Made by a program: the position numbers and the translations under genes
Shown here: positions 874 through 54,514 of the stretch, piece by piece
Numbering within the stretch: the stretch's first letter is position 1
Layout of the letters: each line of letters opens with the position of its first letter
NCBI RefSeq assembly: GCF_056746865.1
Contig: NZ_CM163382.1
DNA length: 64,000 nucleotides
Direction: 5' to 3' (one strand)
The notes under the pieces: generated by a model
Database searches by the model: none
Seen by the model: only the letters and a program-made list of their open reading frames with translations
Told to the model about the DNA's origin: nothing

Positions 874-2268
874 CTACTCTCTCCGTTCCGGCAATCTAAA
901 GTTAATCTTTTCCACATTAACAATATGGTGATTAATCCTGTCGATATCGACGGAGCTTTGCCCTCTTTCATTCACCGCATGAACATTTGCAAGAGACAGC
1001 AGTGTTTCTTTTTTCGCCATAAACACGCCGCGAACGTCTTTGCGCATGTCGAAGTTCATGCTCAATGCGGGTCCAACTGAGGATTCCTGCATCACATTGA
1101 TATTACGCATAAAAAGATGTTGCGGTTTGTTGTGTAACTCCAGCGACGCACGCTTCATCTCAATGTTAGTCAGCGCCACAAAGGAGACAGCATTCCCGGC
1201 GGAGATTTGAATGCCGCGCAATTTATAAGCAAGATGAGTATTATCCAGTTGAATATTATTCACCCGGAAATTCTGCGGTATCGAGAGATATTTGCCTTTA
1301 ATTACCCCATAGCCGATTAACATCCCGGCACTATTAATCATTTCAATATTATCAATCACAAAGTTGTCACAACCATAAATAGCAACTGTGGCGTTATCAA
1401 TACCTGCTTTCTTACTGAAATCCGGCGTGATATTACGGGCTTTGATATTACGAATAACAAAATGTTTACCATTTTCAACATGGATCAGTTGCCGACAATC
1501 CGATCCCGTGATATTCGCCACGACAAAGTTTTTCACTGCCTGGTCTTCCGGGTAGTTGTTATCATAAGTGCTTCCCGCAAGACCTATGCCAATGCCCCAG
1601 TTGATTTTGCCGTTAGTACAGTTGATGCGCTCGATGACATGGTCAGATATCAAAATATCACGGTCGTTAATCGCCACGTTCCATTCAATAGCGTCGCCCT
1701 GTAAGTCACTGAACTTACAGTTGGTGATGTTGGCACCGATAATCTGATTATGAAATCCCTGGCGTAAGATGGCGTAATTAGCGTGGCTGACAGTGAGGTT
1801 ATCGATGGTCAGGTTGCGCATGACCCGTTTGTTTTTGCCGCCGATATAAATCTGCGTTACCGGATCAAAGCCGCTCATCGCCAGCCCTTTGATGGTGCAG
1901 TCAGAGCCGCGCACATCCAGGGTGATGTTATGCATACTGCCGCCCTCCTCCCCTGTCACCTGGCTGCCGTCCTGTAAGACAAATCGCCCTCTGCCGTTGC
2001 CGCGCAAGCTTCCAAGAATGTGTAACGTTTTACCGGGAGGGATAAAGATGCCGGTGTTGATATTGTCACAAACCAATCCGCCAGGCACGACAACCGTTTG
2101 CCCTTCGCTGAAGGCTTGTTTAAATGAGGCGATCCAGTCGTGAGGGTTGTAGTCGTTAATGTTTACGCTTTGTCGGGCGGATAGTGCACGAGCGAAAGGG
2201 GTATGGAGGAAGGCAAGCGCCGAGCTTGCCGTCAGGAAGGTGCGTCGGGAGAGTTTTTTAAATGGCAT
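874..2268 (-). CDS. wcaM: colanic acid biosynthesis protein WcaM (464 aa; twin-arginine-like signal [20 protein letters not shown])
   Basis: ORF track 464 aa; length and position at distal end of wca cluster match WcaM. Confidence 0.9.
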
Positions 2269-2278
2269 GCGTTCTCCT

Positions 2279-3499
2279 CTATAAAGCCTGCAGCAAGCTG
2301 GCGAGTTCTCGGTTAATCACCTGTTGGTTAAAATCGTGTTCGACTTTTTCGCGCGCACGTTTGACGACCGGCGCCAGTTCGTCGGTGTCCAGTTGGCTAA
2401 ACGCCGCCAGTCGTTGCGCCAGTGCGCGAGCATCGTTCTCAGGCACCAGCCAGCCGGATTTGTCGGCCTCAACCAGTTCTGGTATTCCGCTATGCAGAGT
2501 TGAAACAACCGGAATGCCGACCGCCATTGCTTCCATTAGTGCCACCGGAATGCCTTCCATATCACCATCCGCACCTGTAACCGATGGCAACAGGAAGACA
2601 TCCGCGTCGTCGAGCATCGCTTTCACTTCGTGGCTCGGTTTAAAGCCCGGCATCTCTACCACATCTTCCAGTTGATATTGTTCGATGAGGGTGCGCAGGC
2701 GTCGTTCCCACGGGCCAATGCCGAGGATGCGATAGCGAAATGCCACGCCCTGCTCTTTCAACTGACGGCAGGCTTCGATCGCCACATGCAGGCCTTTTTT
2801 CTCGGTTAAGCGTGCGACGGAAATGATTTCCAGCGGCGTTGCGGGCGCTTTCACCGGACGCGGGCTAAAACGCGTCATGTCCACGCCCATGCGCGATACG
2901 GCGATTTTTTCCCTCGGGCAGCCCATTTTTTGCAGCCTTCCGGCCCACAGATTGCTTATTGGTAACATCAGGTCGCCACGGCGAAACAGTTGTTGATATT
3001 CGGGAGTGTAGTGGTTGAGCACTTCCCGACTGGAGATATCAATACCGTGGAAGATAGTGGCAATTTTGCCGCGAATGACACCCAGTTCGCGTAGTTTTGC
3101 CGCGGTTACCCCAGCAGGGCCAAAATGAGCGATAAACACATCGGCATGAAACGGTGTTGCGACCTGGCCGCAAATGGCAGACAAAATCAGGTTCCGCGAC
3201 TCGGCACCATAGCGTTTGAGGTTAAGCGCCTGCCAGGTATTTTTACGATGAATGCCGCGTAAGGTCTGACTGGCTCGGTGGCGCAGTTTCGCCACTTTGC
3301 CCGTAGGTTCGTCCTGTAACCAGCGGGTTCTGGCGGCAAGGTTGTATTTCGTCCATGCCGCGTGGGTGTTCTGGGTGTCGCCTTTTTGCAGCGCGACAAT
3401 CTCCACCTCAAAGCCCATATCAATAAACGCGGTAATTTGATTGAGGATGAAGGTTTCTGACGACAGCGGAAATTTCAATAAGAAGAAGCCGACCTTCAT
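2279..3499 (-). CDS. wcaL: colanic acid glycosyltransferase WcaL (GT4-like, 406 aa)
   Basis: ORF track 406 aa; glycosyltransferase-like C-terminal region; synteny. Confidence 0.9.
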
Positions 3500-9148: not shown

Positions 9149-9237
9149 ATCGTTACCCTTTTTCAGGCAATAGTTGGCCCTGACCGAAGCGGCCAATTTT
9201 GTTTTTGTCGTTATTTACACCGCGGTTTCGCATTCAT

Positions 9238-19746: not shown

Positions 19747-21909
19747 TTATTTCGCATCCGACTTATATTCGTATTCGTAATAGCCATAATCCTGATACGC
19801 GCTGGCGCGGCGGAAGATGGAGTTCAGAATCACCCCTTTCACCGGAATACCATTTTGCTCAAAGCGGCTCAGACTGGTTTCCACTTCTTTCAATGTGTTG
19901 ACCGCATAACGCGCCACCATTAATGTGGTTCCGACATGACGACCAACAATTGCCGCATCGGTCACTGCCAGAATCGGCGGCGTATCAATCAACACCAGGT
20001 CATAGTTTTTACTCGCCCAGTTCACCAGTTCGGCAAAGCGTTCGCTCATCAACAGTTCAGAAGGATTTGGCGGTACCTGACCGCGCGGGATCAGGTCAAA
20101 TTTGGCAATAGAGGTCGGTTTAGCAGCGGTAGTAATATCGCCCTGACCAATCAGAATTTCCGACAGGCCATTGACGTTATTAGTGCCCAACAGCTCGTGG
20201 GTGTAGCCTTTGCGCATATCGCAGTCGATCAACAACACCCGTTTATTGGTCTGGCTGATCACCGCCGCCAGGTTGGCGCAGACAAAGGTTTTACCAATTG
20301 ACGGGCTAACCCCGGTCATCATCAACACATTGTTCTGTGCCTGCATCATCGCGAAGTGCAAACTGGTACGCAGACTACGGATGGCTTCAATCGCCAGATC
20401 GGTTGGATTCCCCACCGCCAGTAGCAGGCTCTGTTTATAGCGTTTAATCCCTTTGATGGTTTTGACGCTATCACGCGCTTTCTGCCATTCCGACAGCGGG
20501 ATGCTGGCATAGACGCTAATACCGTGTTCTTCCAGTACTTGCGGGCTTTCAATGCCGCGATTAAACAACGAGCGCAGCAGCACACCCACGATAGAAAGCA
20601 TCAGGCCAAGGATAATCGCGCCGAGGATAATCAGCCCTTTCTTCGGTTTCAGCACGCCAGGCTGAGTGATTGCCGGGTCAACAATGCGCACATCGCCGAC
20701 GGTGCTGGCCTCGGTGATTTTCAGCTCCTGCTCTTTATTCAGCAGTTGCATATAGACCTGCTGACCAGACTCGACATCGCGGGTCAGACGGACAATCTCC
20801 TGCTGGGTTTTCGGCATCGCCGTTACGCGACCGTTAAGTTTGGCTTTTTCGTCTTCCAGCGCCTGACGTTTCTCCAGCAGCGTGCGGTACGCCGGGTGAA
20901 CTTTGGTGTACAGCTTGGAGATTTCCGCCTCTTTAAAGGTCAGTTCGTTCAACTGGGCGTCGATGTTCACCATCGAATCGAGCACCGCTTTCGCTTCCAG
21001 CGGCAGATCAACAGAATCTTTATCCTGACGGAAGGCATTCAGTTTGTTTTCGGCAACATCCAAGCGGCTACGTACTTCCGGTAACTGTTGCGCGAGGAAG
21101 GCGAGGCTTTTCGACGCTTCCGCCGATTTGCGCTCAATATTTTGTTCCTGATAGTTACGGGCGATGCTGTTAAGAATGTCGCGGATCTGTTCACGATCTT
21201 CACCGGTATAAGTCAGGCTCAAAACGCCAGCGTCTTTGCCGTTCTCCGTTACCGTCAGGCTGTTTTGCAGTTGGTTGATCATCCCCAGCGTGGAGTATTT
21301 GGTGACGGCAAACTCACTGCCCGGGCTGGCGTGAATGGCTTCAACCATCAGCGTGACGCCTTCTTTTTTCAGCATCTGGCCCGCTTGCCCCCGGGCGCTA
21401 AAGCCGCCGTCGCTGCTCAGGGTGTAGTTTTTGTTGTCCAGCACATTAAGCGTAAACACCTGATCCGCCATCTCTTTCGGGCGGTTAAAGGTGGTCACTT
21501 TCACCGTCTCGTTCTGACGTCCCATCAGGCGATCCCAGCCCGCACCGAAAATCGGGAACGTGTTTTTGCTCACTGCAATATCGAGGTCGAGATCGTCCAC
21601 CGTTTTACCAAGCACCAGACGCGAACGAATCAACTGGATCTCGGCGTCCGATGCAGGCGGTTTGTTGGCTAATGCCGAACCAATGTCCTGCACTAACGAA
21701 TTGCCGCTGTTTTGCTCGATTTGTACCAGTGCGTCGGCACTATAAATCGGCGTGGCGAAGAAGGTGTAAACCACGGCACAGAGGGCGAATACGGTGGTGA
21801 TGCCAATCACCCACCAGCGCGCTTCAATGACGGTGCCGACCAGGCGACCAATATCGATTTCATCACTGCCCGTTACCGGAGCGGCATGTTGTTTTACTTT
21901 TTCTGTCAT
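19747..21909 (-). CDS. wzc: tyrosine autokinase Wzc (BY-kinase, 720 aa; C-terminal Tyr cluster YQDYGYYEYEYKSDAK)
   Basis: ORF track frame 19747..21945; start placed at ATG giving MTEKVKQHAAPVTG...; Walker A (SPSIGKTF) and tyrosine-rich tail. Confidence 0.92.
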   Translation of the reverse strand: MTEKVKQHAAPVTGSDEIDIGRLVGTVIEARWWVIGITTVFALCAVVYTFFATPIYSADALVQIEQNSGNSLVQDIGSALANKPPASDAEIQLIRSRLVLGKTVDDLDLDIAVSKNTFPIFGAGWDRLMGRQNETVKVTTFNRPKEMADQVFTLNVLDNKNYTLSSDGGFSARGQAGQMLKKEGVTLMVEAIHASPGSEFAVTKYSTLGMINQLQNSLTVTENGKDAGVLSLTYTGEDREQIRDILNSIARNYQEQNIERKSAEASKSLAFLAQQLPEVRSRLDVAENKLNAFRQDKDSVDLPLEAKAVLDSMVNIDAQLNELTFKEAEISKLYTKVHPAYRTLLEKRQALEDEKAKLNGRVTAMPKTQQEIVRLTRDVESGQQVYMQLLNKEQELKITEASTVGDVRIVDPAITQPGVLKPKKGLIILGAIILGLMLSIVGVLLRSLFNRGIESPQVLEEHGISVYASIPLSEWQKARDSVKTIKGIKRYKQSLLLAVGNPTDLAIEAIRSLRTSLHFAMMQAQNNVLMMTGVSPSIGKTFVCANLAAVISQTNKRVLLIDCDMRKGYTHELLGTNNVNGLSEILIGQGDITTAAKPTSIAKFDLIPRGQVPPNPSELLMSERFAELVNWASKNYDLVLIDTPPILAVTDAAIVGRHVGTTLMVARYAVNTLKEVETSLSRFEQNGIPVKGVILNSIFRRASAYQDYGYYEYEYKSDAK

Positions 21910-21911
21910 TC

Positions 21912-22355
21912 TTATACCTGCTCTGCGTTCAATGCCTGCGCCCACTGGCGGGCAGACCGTTCAAGTAATGTGTACACCGCTGCAAACGTTTCCCGGCTTT
22001 TGCGATACGGATCGGGGATTTCACATTCGTTATCCCAGTGACCAAACAGCATCACTTTGCCGCGCATCTCGGGTGCCATCTCGCATAAGCGTTCGATATG
22101 GCGCTTTTCCATGGTCAAAATCAGGTCGTAGTTGCGACACAGACGGCGGCTGATTTGTCGTGCACAGTGGCCTTCCAGAGACAGTTGATGTTCTGCGGCG
22201 ACGCTGATAGCAGTAGGGTCAGCGCCCTTACCGACCAGCGCGCCGAGTCCAGCGGACTCCACTTTCAGCTCCGGGTGATAACGTTGCAGTAAGCGTTCCG
22301 CCGTCGGGGAGCGGCAAATATTGCCGACACAGACAACTAAGATGTTGTTAAACAT
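21912..22355 (-). CDS. wzb: low-molecular-weight protein-tyrosine phosphatase Wzb (147 aa)
   Basis: ORF track 147 aa; catalytic P-loop CVGNICRSP near the N-terminus. Confidence 0.93.
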   Translation of the reverse strand: MFNNILVVCVGNICRSPTAERLLQRYHPELKVESAGLGALVGKGADPTAISVAAEHQLSLEGHCARQISRRLCRNYDLILTMEKRHIERLCEMAPEMRGKVMLFGHWDNECEIPDPYRKSRETFAAVYTLLERSARQWAQALNAEQV

Positions 22356-23678: not shown

Positions 23679-23690
23679 CACGCTACCGCC
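23679..23690 (-). promoter_or_regulatory. ops element (GGCGGTAGCGTG on the transcribed strand) within a JUMPstart-type leader of the wza operon; RfaH recruitment site
   Basis: Plus strand reads cacgctaccgcc; reverse complement is the 12-nt ops consensus GGCGGTAGnnTG; ~180 nt upstream of the wza start codon. Confidence 0.6.
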
Positions 23691-23903
23691 CCTGGCTTTT
23701 TAGCTACCAATACACTGATTTAGTTTAATTTTTCACACCCTCTCAGCATGCAGTCGTTGATGAGAAAGGGTTATTACGGAAATTAACTTCCGAATATAAG
23801 GTGACATTATGGTAATTGAATATTGGCTTTCCAATAATGCAGGAGGAAGTGTTACAGCTAACGGAATAGCAGGCAAGGTAACAATTCGGCAATTGGCTAT
23901 TTT

Positions 23904-38378: not shown

Positions 38379-39140
38379 TCATTCTGTCCACAGCGCCAGT
38401 GCCAACGTTTTATCATCATCGGTACGCTCGTTTACCGCCGGGCCGGACAAAAACTGCTTTAACAATTCAGGTAATAAATCGAGTTGTTCCTGCGTTGCTG
38501 ACGCCAGCCCATTGAAAAACGGGGTAAAGAAAGGCACATGGGGAGAATTATCCAGCATATTTAACGCCAGCCGCTGGATACCATCCGTAAATGCTGCAAC
38601 TTTGTGCGCACGCTCAGTGCTGGTGAAAGTTTCCAGTCTGGAAACCGCATCTTCATCGGTAATGAAGTGCGTCATGTTGGCATATTCACCCACCATCGGC
38701 GTGAGCGGCAGTTGCAGACCGTGCCCCAAATCTACCACCACGCCGCCATCGCCAATCTGCATAATCAAGGTGCCGTCAGGCGATGAAATCAGTCCCAGAA
38801 ATGTGCAGGCAAAATCGCGAACCGCTAATTCTTTGGCTTCCGCCTCGGCAAAAAGTCGCTGACGAATGGTCAGCACAATATCCGTGGCGAGGACATCATT
38901 AAGCCCCAATTCCCCGCCCTGCACTTTTTGCGACATATAAGCCATCGCTTCATTGACGGCGAGCATCGCGCCTTCGCCACCCTGCGAGACACTGCCTGCG
39001 CCATCAGCGACAAATACCGACAATAATGGCTGCTGGTCATTTAACCAGGCAACCTGCATCTGGCAGGCATCCTGGCAAGGCAAGTCCGCGCTGATGTGCG
39101 ACGTTCCAACGGTTGATGCATAGACCAGACGCCAGCTCAC
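38379..39140 (-). CDS. yegK: PP2C-family Ser/Thr protein phosphatase YegK/PphC (253 aa)
   Basis: ORF track 253 aa; PP2C-like N-terminus ([20 protein letters not shown]). Confidence 0.9.
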
Positions 39141-39796
39141 ACTGACGTCCAGCCTTTTGGCGCTTCCAGCACAACTTCCGTTCCCGGCGTGGAGCGGGAA
39201 ACCGAACGCAGCGAACTGGATAACCAGCTAAACAGTTCACGGAATTGTAATCCCTGCAGTGGCAAAGGCTGACGAACGCTGATTTGTGCCAAAGTCTTCA
39301 TATCCGCCCCCTGAACACCGATGGAAAAGAAGGCAAACTTCTTATCTTCTTCCCCCTGAAACACTTTGTTGGCGGCAGCCTGCCACTCATCGGTTGGTGC
39401 GCCATCAGTGATCAGGAAAATCCACGGACGATAATAGGAAATACCATTGGCGCGATACTCACGTTTGCGCTCCTCAACCATATCCAGGGCTTTGGTAATG
39501 GCGGCCCCCATTGGTGTATCGCCTTGGGCAAACAGGATGGGCGGGAAAAAATTAGCGGCGCTGGTAAAGGGTTGTTCCACATGCACCGGGCCGAACGTCA
39601 CAATGCCGAGTTCCACTCTTTTTAAGGCCAGCGAATCGGCAAGCAGCTCATCGCGAAAGGTAACCAATCCGGCGTTAAGTTCATTAATAGGTCTACCGTT
39701 CATAGAACCAGAAACATCCAGCAGCAAAATGCAGGGGCAACGTGGTTCCGGGTTACTGGCAAAATCGCTGGTGGCAAACATGATTTGTTCGCTCAT
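39137..39796 (-). CDS. yegL: von Willebrand factor A (vWA) domain protein YegL (TerY-like, 219 aa)
   Basis: ORF track 219 aa; MIDAS motif DVSGSM; 4-nt overlap with yegK. Confidence 0.9.
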
Positions 39797-39976
39797 AAGA
39801 AATCCTTTCTTAGAGAATTATTGAGGTCCGGTATCATACCGATTGCAATAATGAAATAAGAGCAAACGAAGAAACTTTCAGAATTAGGCCCGGCGGCGCA
39901 GAAAATTTTGCTATTCGCCTCGCAAGAACGGAGAGCCGTCGATTGACACTAAGGGCGGAGTGACATAATTTCAGGA

Positions 39977-40120
39977 GTGAGGGTTAGGGAGAGGTTTCCC
40001 CCTCCCCCTGGTGTTCTTAGTAAGCCTGGAAGCTAATCACTAAGAGTATCACCAGTATGATGACGTGCTTCATCATAACCCTTTCCTTATTAAAAGCCCT
40101 CTTCTCCGGGAGAGGGTTTC
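39977..40120 (+). ncRNA. sibA: Sib-family antisense sRNA (antitoxin of ibs copy 1); ends approximate
   Basis: Plus-strand TTGACA (39943-39948) with downstream -10-like cataat; GC hairpin gccctcttctccgggagagggt + T-run at ~40096-40120; fully covers the ibs ORF on the opposite strand. Confidence 0.5.
40017..40076 (-). CDS. ibsA: type I toxin Ibs family, 19 aa: MMKHVIILVILLVISFQAY
   Basis: Reverse complement of 40017-40076 translated by hand; hydrophobic Ibs-type peptide; too short for the ORF track. Confidence 0.8.
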   Translation of the reverse strand: MMKHVIILVILLVISFQAY

Positions 40121-40312
40121 CCGTTTCAGCGTCCCGCTGAAATCGTCGGCTTACCTCCTTTCGCCCTGAATGCAGTCTATCGCTAACGCGTGAACAAAAT
40201 AGTTTCCTCTGTGATTATTGCGTAACGACTCGCAAAGAATATTTGCTGGCAGGATCGCAGACTGCAAAGCCTGCAGATTGACAATCTTATCGTGAAGGCA
40301 TACTTTCAGGAG

Positions 40313-40446
40313 TGAGGGTAGAGCGGGGTTTCCCCCGCCCTGGTAGTCTTAGTATGCTGGGTAGCTAATCACTAAGAGCACCACGATGATGAGTATCTTC
40401 ATCATGACCCTTTCCTTATTTAAGGCCCCTTCCTCGGGAGGGGCTT
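40313..40446 (+). ncRNA. Sib-family antisense sRNA (copy 2); ends approximate
   Basis: TTGACA at 40278-40283, 17-nt spacer, -10-like tacttt; terminator hairpin ggccccttcctcgggaggggc + ttt at 40423-40446. Confidence 0.5.
40348..40404 (-). CDS. type I toxin Ibs family, 18 aa: MMKILIIVVLLVISYPAY
   Basis: Hand translation of reverse complement; IbsB-like. Confidence 0.75.
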
Positions 40447-40640
40447 TCCCGTTTCAGCGTCCCGCTAAAATCGTCGGCTTACCTCCTTTCGCCCTGAATG
40501 CAGTCTATCGCTAACGCGTGAACAAAATAGTTTCCTCTGTGATTATTGCGTAACGACTCGCAAAGAATATTTGCTGGCAGGATCGCAGACTGCAAAGCCT
40601 GCAGATTGACAATCTTATCGTGAAGGCATACTTTCAGGAG

Positions 40641-40775
40641 TGAGGGTAGAGCGGGGGTTCCCCCGCCCTGGTAGTCTTAGTAAGCCGGGAAGCTTATGAC
40701 TAAGAGCACCACGATGATGATCCACTTCATCATGACCCTTTCCTTATTTAAGGCCCCTTCCTCGGGAGGGGCTTT
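40641..40775 (+). ncRNA. Sib-family antisense sRNA (copy 3); ends approximate
   Basis: Same promoter and terminator architecture as copy 2 (TTGACA 40606-40611; hairpin ~40752-40775). Confidence 0.5.
40677..40733 (-). CDS. type I toxin Ibs family, 18 aa: MMKWIIIVVLLVISFPAY
   Basis: Hand translation of reverse complement; IbsB-like. Confidence 0.75.
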   Translation of the reverse strand: MMKWIIIVVLLVISFPAY

Positions 40776-40968
40776 CCCGTTTCAGCGTCCCGCTGAAATC
40801 ATCGGCTTACCTCCTTTCGCCCTGAATGCAGTCTATCGCTGACTTGCGGATAAAATAGTTTCACATGTGATTATTGTGTAACGTCTCGCAAAGAATATTT
40901 GCTGGCAGGATCGCAGACTGCAAAGCCTGCAGATTGACAATCTTATCGTGAAGGCATACTTTCAGGAG

Positions 40969-41103
40969 TGAGGGTAGAGCGGGGTTTCCCCCGCCCTGGT
41001 AGTCTTAGTATGCTGGGTAGCTAATCACTAAGAGCACCACGATGATGAGTAGCTTCATCATGACCCTTTCCTTATTTAAGGCCCCTTCCTCGGGAGGGGC
41101 TTT
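40969..41103 (+). ncRNA. Sib-family antisense sRNA (copy 4); ends approximate
   Basis: Same architecture (TTGACA 40934-40939; hairpin ~41080-41103). Confidence 0.5.
41005..41061 (-). CDS. type I toxin Ibs family, 18 aa: MMKLLIIVVLLVISYPAY
   Basis: Hand translation of reverse complement; IbsB-like. Confidence 0.75.
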   Translation of the reverse strand: MMKLLIIVVLLVISYPAY

Positions 41104-41268
41104 CCCGTTTCAGCGTCCCGCTGAAATCGTCGGCTTACCTCCTTTCGCCATGCAAGCAGTCTATCGCTAACGCGTAGATAAAATAGTTTCATGTGTTATT
41201 ACTGGATGCGTGCTCGCAAATGTGCCCGTCATTCAGACGATTCCCGACAGTGTTTCATAATTCCTCCA

Positions 41269-41286
41269 TTTTTCTCCCTTATTGGC
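41269..41286 (+). promoter_or_regulatory. BaeR-box-like site upstream of mdtA (tttttctcccttattggc), preceded by a similar half-site ttcctccatt
   Basis: Match by eye to the remembered BaeR consensus TTTTTCTCCATDATTGGC; ~55 nt upstream of the mdtA start. Confidence 0.5.
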
Positions 41287-41339
41287 TGGCTACACTAGTA
41301 TCATTCCGCGAAACGTTTCAGGAAGAGAAACTCTTAACG

Positions 41340-42587
41340 ATGAAAGGCAGTTATAAATCCCGTTGGGTAATCGTAATCGTGGTGGTTATCGCCGCCATCG
41401 CCGCATTCTGGTTCTGGCAAGGCCGCAATGACTCCCGGAGTGCAGCCCCAGGGGCGACGAAACAAGCGCAGCAATCGCCAGCGGGTGGTCGCCGTGGTAT
41501 GCGTTCCGGCCCATTAGCCCCGGTTCAGGCGGCGACCGCCGTAGAACAGGCAGTTCCGCGTTACCTCACCGGGCTTGGCACCATTACCGCCGCTAATACC
41601 GTTACGGTGCGCAGCCGCGTGGACGGCCAACTGATAGCGTTACATTTCCAGGAAGGCCAGCAGGTCAAAGCAGGCGATTTACTGGCAGAAATTGACCCAA
41701 GCCAGTTCAAAGTTGCATTAGCACAAGCCCAGGGCCAACTGGCAAAAGATAAAGCCACGCTTGCCAACGCCCGCCGTGACCTGGCGCGTTATCAACAACT
41801 GGTAAAAACCAATCTCGTATCTCGTCAGGAGCTGGATGCCCAACAGGCGCTGGTCAGTGAAACCGAAGGCACCATTAAGGCTGATGAAGCAAGCGTCGCC
41901 AGCGCGCAGCTGCAACTCGACTGGAGCCGCATCACCGCACCAGTCGATGGTCGCGTTGGTCTCAAGCAGGTTGATGTTGGTAACCAAATCTCCAGTGGTG
42001 ATACCACCGGGATTGTGGTGATCACCCAGACGCACCCTATCGATTTAGTCTTTACCCTGCCGGAAAGCGATATCGCTACCGTAGTACAGGCGCAAAAAGC
42101 CGGAAAACCGCTGGTTGTTGAAGCCTGGGATCGCACCAACTCGAAGAAATTAAGTGAAGGCACGCTGTTAAGCCTCGATAACCAAATCGATGCCACTACC
42201 GGTACGATTAAAGTGAAAGCACGCTTTAATAATCAGGATGATGCACTGTTTCCCAATCAGTTTGTTAACGCGCGTATGTTAGTCGACACCGAACAAAACG
42301 CCGTGGTGATCCCCACCGCCGCCCTGCAAATGGGCAATGAAGGCCATTTTGTCTGGGTGCTGAATAGCGAAAACAAGGTCAGCAAACATCTGGTGACGCC
42401 GGGCATTCAGGACAGTCAGAAAGTGGTGATCCGCGCAGGTATTTCTGCGGGCGACCGCGTAGTGACGGACGGAATTGATCGCCTGACCGAAGGGGCGAAA
42501 GTGGAAGTGGTAGAAGCTCAAAGCGCCACCACTTCGGAAGAGAAAGCCACCAGCCGCGAATACGCGAAAAAAGGAGCACGCTCCTGA
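41340..42587 (+). CDS. mdtA: RND efflux membrane fusion protein MdtA (415 aa)
   Basis: ORF track frame 41193..42587; start placed at ATG 41340 giving [23 protein letters not shown]. Confidence 0.9.
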
Positions 42588-54343: not shown

Positions 54344-54479
54344 TTAATTTCGATTATTTTTCCCGGATGGAAAATTCTTAGAAACCGATCACATACAGCT
54401 GCATTTATTAAGGTTATCATCCGTTTCGCTGAAAAACATAACCCATAAAATGCTAGCTGTACCAGGAACCACCTCCTTA

Positions 54480-54514
54480 GCCTGTGTAATCTCCCTTACA
54501 CGGGCTTATTTTTT
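54480..54514 (+). terminator. rho-independent terminator-like hairpin downstream of yegQ (gcctgtgtaa-tctccc-ttacacgggc + ttattttttat)
   Basis: 10-bp stem (one G-U) followed by T-run, read directly. Confidence 0.5.

Follow-up and report, generated by a model that had tools for sequence, protein, structure and literature searches.

The sib/ibs genes of E. coli K-12 are the closest described relatives of the repeats analysed here. At the yegL-mdtA site K-12 carries sibA/ibsA and sibB/ibsB (b4436/b4667 and b4437/b4668), and the annotation of its IbsB goes no further than "putative toxic peptide". SibC/IbsC is the experimentally dissected member of the group (Fozo et al. 2008; Han et al. 2010, PMC2943612), and the definitions of the segments TRD1 and TRD2 and of cognate specificity come from the work of Han et al. 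Other published work covers the translation block by Sib and RNase III (PMC4147584), depolarisation of the membrane by IbsC (PMC8309996) and the inhibitory effect of Salmonella IbsA on the Fo sector of ATP synthase (bioRxiv 10.1101/2025.05.26.656083). Ibs counts differ among strains, and lineage-specific duplication drives their evolution (PMC2887945).

Tandem Repeats Finder reported one tandem array at 39964-41201 of the 64,000-nucleotide stretch of DNA analysed here (the window), with a period of 328, 3.8 copies, 91% matches, no indels and a score of 2026. Mean column identity in the four-unit alignment was 90%. Repeat finding and unit alignment together place the whole array of four sib/ibs units, taken over both strands, at 39900..41200 in the yegL-mdtA intergenic region. 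To the left lies yegL (vWA-domain protein; 39137..39796, minus strand), placed from the ORF list and the RefSeq annotation of strain CFSAN061770. To the right lies mdtA (RND efflux membrane-fusion subunit; 41340..42587, plus strand), placed from RefSeq annotation and from an ORF at 41193-42587 that contains the K-12-type start MKGSYKSRW at 41340. The flanking genes are those of the K-12 sibA/ibsA-sibB/ibsB locus, which the array resembles in chromosomal site, orientation, unit length and anatomy. It differs in having four units where K-12 has two. The initial annotation had proposed that four ibs/sib type I toxin-antitoxin units lie here in direct repeats of about 330 bp, and had given K-12 two units at this site. 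The array was correctly identified, with four SIB_RNA matches and four intact antisense ORFs; the period is 328 bp, and the K-12 annotation does show two units. The sequence anatomy of the array, its family membership at the level of sequence and structure and its population distribution were observed directly. We conclude that the region very probably holds four Ibs/Sib type I toxin-antitoxin modules in tandem at a conserved E. coli site, with repression of ibs by Sib in each unit, a membrane-acting toxin, and an array length that is polymorphic through unequal recombination.

Four plus-strand matches to SIB_RNA (Rfam RF00113) were found at 39943-40091, 40278-40420, 40606-40748 and 40934-41076. 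Each covers the full model (1-147), and the scores of 137.8-149.5 bits compare with a gathering score of 56 (E-values 2e-32 to 2e-29). No further match to RF00113 was found elsewhere in the 64-kb window. The predicted SibA-type antitoxin RNA of unit 1 (39979..40122, plus strand, 144 nt; 149.5 bits) has its ends set by alignment to annotated K-12 sibA, with which it is identical at 143/144 nt. Its predicted fold has an energy of -58.5 kcal/mol and a z-score of -4.9, with a terminator hairpin at 40094-40119. Units 2 to 4 encode putative SibB-type antitoxin RNAs on the plus strand, at 40314..40449 (136 nt, taking K-12 sibB as the model; 140.8 bits, fold z -3.7), 40642..40777 (137.8 bits, z -4.5) and 40970..41105 (141.6 bits, z -3.9); the first was placed by alignment to K-12 SibB, and the other two also by alignment. 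All four RNAs share a predicted architecture of a P1 closing stem, a 5' hairpin, P5, P6, a single-stranded anti-Shine-Dalgarno stretch and a terminator. Over the four folds z-scores ranged from -3.7 to -4.9, and none of 200 shuffles folded as well. Equivalents of TRD1 and TRD2 are present in the predicted Sibs by alignment to SibC +46-68 and +99-115. Folding predicts that the TRD2 equivalent, CCUUUCCUUAUUUAA, is unpaired, and it places TRD1 apically in P5.

Every unit carries an exact TTGACA followed, after a 17-nt spacer, by TAATTT (unit 1) or TACTTT (units 2-4). The candidate sib promoters, read from the sequence on the plus strand, lie at 39943..39971 in unit 1 (-35 TTGACA 39943-39948, 17-nt spacer, -10 TAATTT 39966-39971) and at TTGACA 40278-40283 with TACTTT 40301-40306 in unit 2. 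The -35 TTGACA of units 3 and 4 is at 40606-40611 and 40934-40939. A G sits 36 nt past the start of TTGACA, the position of the annotated +1 in K-12 sibA and sibB. The predicted 3' end is a G+C-rich hairpin with an 11-bp stem, followed by only UUUCC, and coincides with the annotated K-12 Sib 3' ends. A generic promoter and terminator scan flagged none of the four sib promoters and no plus-strand sib terminators, because the -10 hexamers match only 3/6 of the consensus and the U-tracts are short. Placement of these candidate elements rests on their register with the annotated K-12 transcripts; the weak -10 and the short U-tract count against them. The TTGACA and the GC hairpin that had been described for each unit on the plus strand, as promoter and terminator, are both present in the sequence; the generic scan flagged neither. 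On the minus strand, a relaxed scan of each unit found no convincing conserved sigma-70 site about 55-60 nt upstream of the ibs ATGs, the distance expected from the mapped ibsC start. We also note a conserved TATTTT on the minus strand, 118 nt upstream of the ibs ATG, and a hairpin at 40097-40116 (minus strand) in the presumed ibsA leader.

Translation of the four minus-strand toxin ORFs gave the same 18-19-aa peptides as the initial annotation had reported. Unit 1 encodes the 19-aa MMKHVIILVILLVISFQAY (ibsA; 40017..40076), which is WP_010723109.1 in the identical RefSeq record. The 18-aa toxins of units 2, 3 and 4 are MMKILIIVVLLVISYPAY (40349..40405; WP_012767742.1, "Ibs family toxin"), MMKWIIIVVLLVISFPAY (40677..40733; WP_012767741.1) and MMKLLIIVVLLVISYPAY (41005..41061; WP_001386901.1). 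The Shine-Dalgarno sequence AAGGAAAGGG lies upstream of each of the four ORFs, and every ORF with its ribosome-binding site falls wholly within the predicted Sib of the opposite strand. As had been remarked, the ORF track does not display them; the sole reason is their length, which is below the 20-aa minimum of the ORF list. The unit 1 peptide equals K-12 IbsA at 19/19 residues. Those of units 2-4 match K-12 IbsB (MMKLLIIVVLLVISFPAY) at 16-17/18 residues: unit 2 is L4I+F15Y, unit 3 is L4W+L5I and unit 4 is F15Y. None of the three is identical to K-12 IbsB; each has 1-2 substitutions, all at positions 4-5 or 15. The earlier division into an IbsA-like unit 1 and IbsB-like units 2-4 was therefore borne out, also by the unit 1 Sib with its one difference from sibA. 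Membership of the Ibs toxin family, as read from the sequence, is given by identity to the K-12 peptides and by RefSeq naming. Other ORFs in the repeat were rejected as genes. Plus-strand ORFs of 42-48 aa in units 2-4 start inside the Sib P6 stem, have no Shine-Dalgarno and extend beyond the Sib 3' end, and TTG ORFs of 33-38 aa in the spacers likewise have no Shine-Dalgarno. Conservation of these mechanical ORFs is explained by the repeat itself.

Copy-number classes were taken from two rank-spread samples, 100 rows in total, drawn from 5,426 complete E. coli genomes; the resulting percentages are approximations and carry the RefSeq sampling bias. The yegL-mdtA array had 3 units in ~40% and 2 units in ~37% of sampled genomes, 4 units in ~12%, 5 in ~2% and 1 in ~2%. 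The two-unit K-12 locus is therefore not representative, three units being commonest. The claim that the locus had expanded to four holds against K-12's two; among complete E. coli genomes four units are found in the ~12% given above, and arrays of five exist as well. Over positions 39500-41500 the sequence is 100% identical to E. coli CFSAN061770 (NZ_CP023142.1; raw-milk cheese, Egypt). That record annotates 4/4 toxin CDS as IbsA or "Ibs family toxin" and has no sib ncRNA genes. The array is thus already known: it is an ordinary, annotated copy-number variant of a well-known module.

A few toxin alleles recur in differing orders among strains. The IbsB-type alleles WP_012767742, WP_012767741 and WP_001386901 occur in many strains at different array positions. 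Each IbsB-like toxin had been said to carry a distinct substitution; the differences are real, but none is private, all three peptides being recurrent RefSeq alleles. Toxin variation is limited to residues 4-5 and 15, which map to the Sib P6 hairpin loop and to TRD1 as published. In unit 2 the first hot spot is the TRD1-equivalent at 40354..40376 (plus strand), in apical P5 opposite ibs codons 10-17, as placed by alignment to SibC +46..+68 (PMC2943612); 6 of 13 recurrent polymorphic transcript sites fall in this segment. The second is the P6 hairpin loop at 40392..40399 (plus strand), opposite ibs codons 3-5 according to the Rfam structure line and the fold, with polymorphic sites at 40393-40396 in unit 2 coordinates. 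Away from these two hot spots, the transcribed part hardly varies across 35 distinct units. Seven of the 9 possible combinations of residues 4-5 with residue 15 were seen in 20 strains. Because the IbsB-type peptides are recurrent alleles at varying array positions, the pattern looks like shuffling of an old allele pool by unequal crossing-over or gene conversion and not like fresh diversification here. The earlier suggestion of ongoing duplication and diversification falls short as to the alleles, which look like a reshuffled old pool; array length does vary among strains.

The hot spots and the shuffled allele order could reflect selection for orthogonal Sib-ibs "addresses" within multi-copy arrays, recombined by unequal crossing-over or gene conversion, an interpretation we offer tentatively and rate below even chances. 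The hot spots would then be the P6 kissing-loop (toxin residues 4-5) and TRD1 (residue 15 with neighbouring synonymous sites), and the amino-acid polymorphism of the toxin would be a by-product of RNA-RNA specificity. A neutral reading fits equally well, with the hot spots as the only positions free of RNA-stem and peptide constraints. The idea of orthogonality was largely anticipated by Han et al. 2010 for the five K-12 paralogues (PMC2943612).

By analogy with published K-12 SibC/IbsC and its relatives, transcription, repression and toxicity of these four units would proceed as follows. The plus strand of each 328-bp unit would give a Sib RNA of ~136-144 nt, running from the TTGACA/17-nt/TA(A/C)TTT promoter to the G+C hairpin, and the minus strand would give the ibs mRNA, with both its 18-19-codon ORF and its Shine-Dalgarno contained wholly within the sib gene. 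Sib may pair with the overlapping ibs mRNA beginning at loop or single-stranded regions, probably at TRD1, which lies within the ORF, and at TRD2, which covers the ribosome-binding site, with the P6 loop assisting. Pairing would block translation and open the duplex to RNase III, leading to mRNA decay. When Sib falls short, the hydrophobic Ibs peptide would enter the inner membrane, where collapse of membrane potential and ATP would lead to growth arrest. Array length (1 to 5 units among strains) is a standing polymorphism, very probably arising from unequal recombination between units.

Repeats of 328 bp in tandem are a classic source of short-read misassembly, and an artefact in which a shorter array was assembled into a longer one had been named as the result that would overturn the initial annotation. 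We consider its probability negligible, and the scenario is effectively excluded. The 2-kb region is 100% identical to the finished CFSAN061770 chromosome, ~160 records match it at >=99% identity, four units occur in a share of the sampled complete genomes and five-unit arrays were found in two independent genomes. Each unit also has diagnostic substitutions and a different spacer, and mis-joined reads would not produce these. A more serious, though still unlikely, alternative is that only some units are active and that one or more IbsB-type duplicates, such as units 2 and 4, have been carried along by recombination as silent or redundant copies. The transcribed parts of units 2 and 4 are identical at 131/132 positions (a single-base difference, in the P6 loop), with identical TRD1 and TRD2 segments, so that as RNAs the two cannot differ in function; Sib-2 and Sib-4 would accordingly be expected to protect against each other's toxin. 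Sib-3 has the same TRD2 as these two but departs from them at 5 positions of TRD1 and at 3-4 of the P6 loop. H9, FDAARGOS_1268 and 2002-3211 carry arrays in which two or three units are identical; in other strains units have been lost or interrupted by IS elements without obvious consequence, and deletion of all five K-12 sib genes (Fozo, 2008) reportedly gave no phenotype. Against such partial activity, the ORF is intact in each of the four units, as are the Shine-Dalgarno, the exact -35, the -10, the terminator and the fold, and the near-invariance outside the hot spots across the 35 distinct units argues for continued constraint and not for decay.

The repeat might also be a structural or regulatory DNA element in which the short ORFs are incidental, a reading we regard as highly improbable. 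Its original description was simply that of an intergenic repeat, "QUAD", and it contains other mechanical ORFs, for example the 42-48-aa plus-strand ORFs of units 2-4. These start in the P6 stem, have no Shine-Dalgarno and overrun the Sib 3' end, as described above. Within the TRD1 cluster, substitutions at third codon positions are for the most part synonymous, and such replacements as there are (F/Y/W, L/I) are conservative, which speaks against this reading. For the K-12 homologues, Ibs toxicity and repression by Sib are published (PMC4147584, PMC2943612, PMC8309996).

Beyond correct annotation, an array of four Ibs/Sib modules at this site has little significance of its own: the family, the mechanism, tandem duplication and variable copy number are all published, and the exact array is in RefSeq. 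Toxin ORFs of fewer than 20 aa escape generic ORF tracks, and the matching RefSeq record still lacks annotation of the sib RNA genes. The naturally occurring alleles, limited to the P6 loop and TRD1, form a ready test set for the rules of cognate and non-cognate discrimination by Sib.

The units resemble K-12 SibC/IbsC (PMC2943612) in P1, in P5 with TRD1, in P6, in a single-stranded TRD2 over the Shine-Dalgarno and start codon, and in the terminator, as well as in a toxin ORF of 18-19 aa that is fully overlapped by Sib. SibC differs in being a single unit at fau-serA, and the TRD1 and P6 loop sequences have diverged. With ldr/rdl (LDR repeats), zorO/orzO and sibD/E-ibsD/E the array shares a small hydrophobic toxin with an antisense RNA, arranged in tandem within one intergenic region, and also strain-variable copy number with lineage-specific duplication (PMC2887945). 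The toxins of ldr and zor are unrelated in sequence and have another overlap geometry, whereas the antisense RNA of Ibs/Sib covers the complete toxin ORF (PMC8594479).

The region between yegL (39137-39796, minus strand) and mdtA (41340-42587, plus strand) contains a single tandem array (39964-41201) with a period of 328, 3.8 copies, 91% matches and no indels by Tandem Repeats Finder. An Rfam scan of the whole 64-kb window returned four full-length plus-strand matches to SIB_RNA (RF00113; 137.8-149.5 bits against a gathering score of 56) at 39943-40091, 40278-40420, 40606-40748 and 40934-41076 (units 1 to 4), and none outside the array. Antisense to each match was an intact minus-strand ORF with AAGGAAAGGG ahead of it: 40017-40076 (peptide MMKHVIILVILLVISFQAY), 40349-40405 (MMKILIIVVLLVISYPAY), 40677-40733 (MMKWIIIVVLLVISFPAY) and 41005-41061 (MMKLLIIVVLLVISYPAY). 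Their absence from the ORF list is due solely to their length of under 20 aa. The four units of the initial annotation were confirmed in every particular, and its four peptides are exactly those translated from the ORFs. The surrounding genes, asmA-dcd-udk-dgcE-alkA-yegD-yegI-yegJ-pphC-yegL to the left and mdtABCD-baeSR-yegPQ-cyaR-yegR-yegS-gat operon-fbaB to the right, are ordinary E. coli core chromosome. Rfam gathering-level matches were also seen to the CyaR/RyeE sRNA (100.7 bits; 54426-54511, plus strand), which fits the annotated gene context there (between yegQ and yegR), to the JUMPstart element (57.3 bits; 23679-23717, minus strand) and to the algC RNA motif (77.3 bits; 9153-9202, minus strand). 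From the K-12 map, the latter two presumably lie within the colanic-acid (wca) region.

The annotated +1 of K-12 sibA and sibB lies 36 nt past the initial T of a perfect TTGACA, and all four window units show the K-12 arrangement of TTGACA, 17-nt spacer, -10, 7 nt and then G. Carrying the K-12 transcript ends over by alignment gave predicted plus-strand Sib RNAs of 144 nt for unit 1 (39979-40122) and 136 nt for units 2 to 4 (40314-40449, 40642-40777 and 40970-41105); each ibs ORF lies wholly within the matching Sib gene together with its own Shine-Dalgarno sequence. The TTGACA promoter and GC-hairpin terminator originally proposed for each unit are present and line up with the K-12 transcripts as annotated, but neither is a strong consensus site: the -10 hexamer (TAATTT in unit 1, TACTTT in units 2-4) shares just three bases with the consensus, T1, A2 and T6, and only UUUCC comes after the terminator hairpin. 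A generic scan gave no call for sib promoters or plus-strand terminators in the four units, and it is homology that supports both. Because the Rfam model begins at the -35 TTGACA and ends ahead of the terminator, its matches are offset by 36 nt from the annotated sibA and sibB transcripts, and match coordinates (for example 39943-40091 versus Sib 39979-40122) are not transcript ends in any of the four units.

No convincing ibs promoter emerged from a relaxed scan at ~55-60 nt upstream, where the mapped start of ibsC would put it. On the minus strand, the Sib terminator palindrome of unit 1 (40097-40116) is followed by CTTTTAATAA and was called terminator-like; units 2-4 carry CCTTAAATAA instead and gave no such call. 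This hairpin immediately precedes the Shine-Dalgarno sequence in the leader of ibsA and could therefore attenuate ibsA transcription.

The four Sibs are predicted to share one architecture (MFE -58.5 to -62.2 kcal/mol; z-scores -3.7 to -4.9; 0/200 shuffles folding as well), consisting of a closing stem P1, a 5' G+C hairpin, P5, a P6 hairpin (GAUGAUG/CAUCAU, complementary to the ibs AUGAUG start), the single-stranded anti-Shine-Dalgarno sequence CCUUUCCUUAUUUAA and a final 11-bp terminator stem. By analogy with homologues (PMC4147584; PMC2943612), Sib, made constitutively, would use TRD1 and TRD2, the SibC target-recognition domains, to pair with the ibs mRNA that it overlaps, blocking ribosome binding and leading to RNase III-dependent decay. 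The Ibs peptide would insert into the inner membrane in single-helix form and depolarize it, as Ibs peptides do in the first minutes after induction (PMC8309996). In a 2025 preprint, an Ibs peptide of Salmonella is reported to bind Fo subunits a and b and to block proton translocation. The window sequence holds nothing contrary to this mechanism in any of the four units. Even in K-12 the annotation of IbsB goes no further than 'putative', and expression and toxicity of the three IbsB-type alleles are likewise putative.

Unit 1 proved IbsA-like as first described, with a peptide identical to K-12 IbsA (19/19) and a Sib region matching sibA at 143/144 positions. Units 2-4 are of the sibB/ibsB type, also as described, with one or two replacements each relative to K-12 IbsB (MMKLLIIVVLLVISFPAY): L4I+F15Y, L4W+L5I and F15Y, respectively. 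Identity between units 1 and 2 is ~75% over the transcribed part and 99% over the downstream spacer, while units 2 and 4 differ at 1 base in 132 of the transcribed part and share only 84.5% identity in the spacer. The units thus form a mosaic that bears the mark of recombination among them, by unequal crossing-over or by gene conversion, rather than of simple serial duplication.

Across 20 strains, 43 IbsB-type units representing 35 distinct sequences showed peptide variation almost confined to residues 4-5 (LL, IL, WI) and residue 15 (F, Y, W), and 7 of the 9 possible combinations were found. Identical alleles occupy differing array positions from strain to strain: the order is IbsA, IL-Y, WI-F, LL-Y in the window, IbsA, LL-F, WI-F, IL-Y in O145:H28, IbsA, WI-F, IL-Y in O157:H7, and LL-Y, WI-F in ST131. 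An IbsA-type unit is absent from ST131 strain 751 and from R4 and 19AR1321 (fetched loci L017, L012 and L011), where the first unit is IbsB-type. Strain 2002-3211 (locus L015, 677-1710) has a truncated 16-aa IbsA (MMKHVIILVILLVISF) followed by three IbsB units with identical peptides, which suggests recent duplication or homogenization.

Nucleotide variation was assessed against 31 nt fixed in advance, comprising the TRD1 equivalent (40354-40376 in unit 2, plus strand) and the 8-nt P6 loop (40392-40399, plus strand). Of 13 sites at which the 136-nt transcribed part is recurrently polymorphic, ten fell inside them (hypergeometric P = 2e-5, a purely descriptive figure given that the sites are linked). 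Six sites vary in the TRD1 cluster, four of them synonymous third positions; replacements are conservative (F/Y/W), and third positions in Sib stems are invariant. Han et al. found that TRD1 and TRD2 let SibC recognize ibsC and discriminate against non-cognate mRNAs, that both sit where the five K-12 Sibs vary most, and that TRD2 requires the P6-loop sequence (PMC2943612). Selection for distinct RNA 'addresses' fits this pattern; so does a reading in which these are simply the only positions that neither RNA stems nor the peptide constrain, in keeping with the tolerance of IbsC for N-terminal changes (PMC8309996), and the data do not separate the two. TRD1 and TRD2 are the same in Sib-2 and Sib-4, whose P6 loops differ at one base, so these two should cross-repress each other's ibs mRNAs.

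The initial annotation allowed that the four copies might be an assembly artefact. For practical purposes this is excluded by an identical finished chromosome and by population counts: CFSAN061770 (NZ_CP023142.1), from raw-milk cheese in Egypt, matches the 2 kb at 39500-41500 with 100% identity, ~160 records match the array region at >=99% identity, and four units are common among sampled genomes. Copy number was estimated from two rank-spread samples (40 and 60 rows) of 5,422 matching records, classed by span and annotated Ibs gene count, with representatives fetched as a check; the shares are approximate and carry RefSeq sampling bias. At yegL-mdtA, ~40% of sampled genomes have three units, ~37% two, ~12% four (5/40 and 7/60 rows), ~2% five (strains H9 and FDAARGOS_1268) and ~2% one, and a few percent show IS interruption or other rearrangement. 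In CFSAN029787 (locus L004, 3420-5837) an IbsB unit has an ISEc60 (IS4-like) copy on either side, and HL15 (L022, 84-1453) carries IS150 between its ibsA and ibsB units. In the E. coli collection, 11 of ~21,400-22,300 matching places (queries 39500-41500 and 39650-41450) were on records classed as plasmids; a 66.8-kb record so classed, from strain MS 198-1, bears the whole yegL-array-mdtA region. RefSeq annotates all four toxin genes in NZ_CP023142.1, as ibsA (WP_010723109) and three 'Ibs family toxin' entries (WP_012767742, WP_012767741 and WP_001386901); neither the four sib genes nor cyaR (yegQ-yegR) appear in this annotation as ncRNA features.

All Ibs/Sib defining features that can be judged from sequence are present in the array: covariance-model matches, fully overlapped 18-19-aa hydrophobic ORFs, identity to IbsA and IbsB, TRD equivalents and the locus. 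We are highly confident that these are four bona fide Ibs/Sib modules, and consider it improbable that one or more is functionally redundant or silent. The system, its tandem duplication and variable copy number, and the exact sequence with toxin annotation are already public. Only the modal three units, the shuffling of alleles among positions and the two hot spots are mildly new, and the population picture was largely anticipated by earlier work. Type I loci evolve by lineage-specific duplication, with six Ibs copies counted in O157:H7 EDL933 and seven each in Sakai, Shigella boydii and S. sonnei (PMC2887945). K-12 MG1655 has two units at this site, as the initial annotation stated, which are annotated as sibA/ibsA and sibB/ibsB, whereas the window has four; the two units of K-12 are not the norm, and four units are a common polymorphism.
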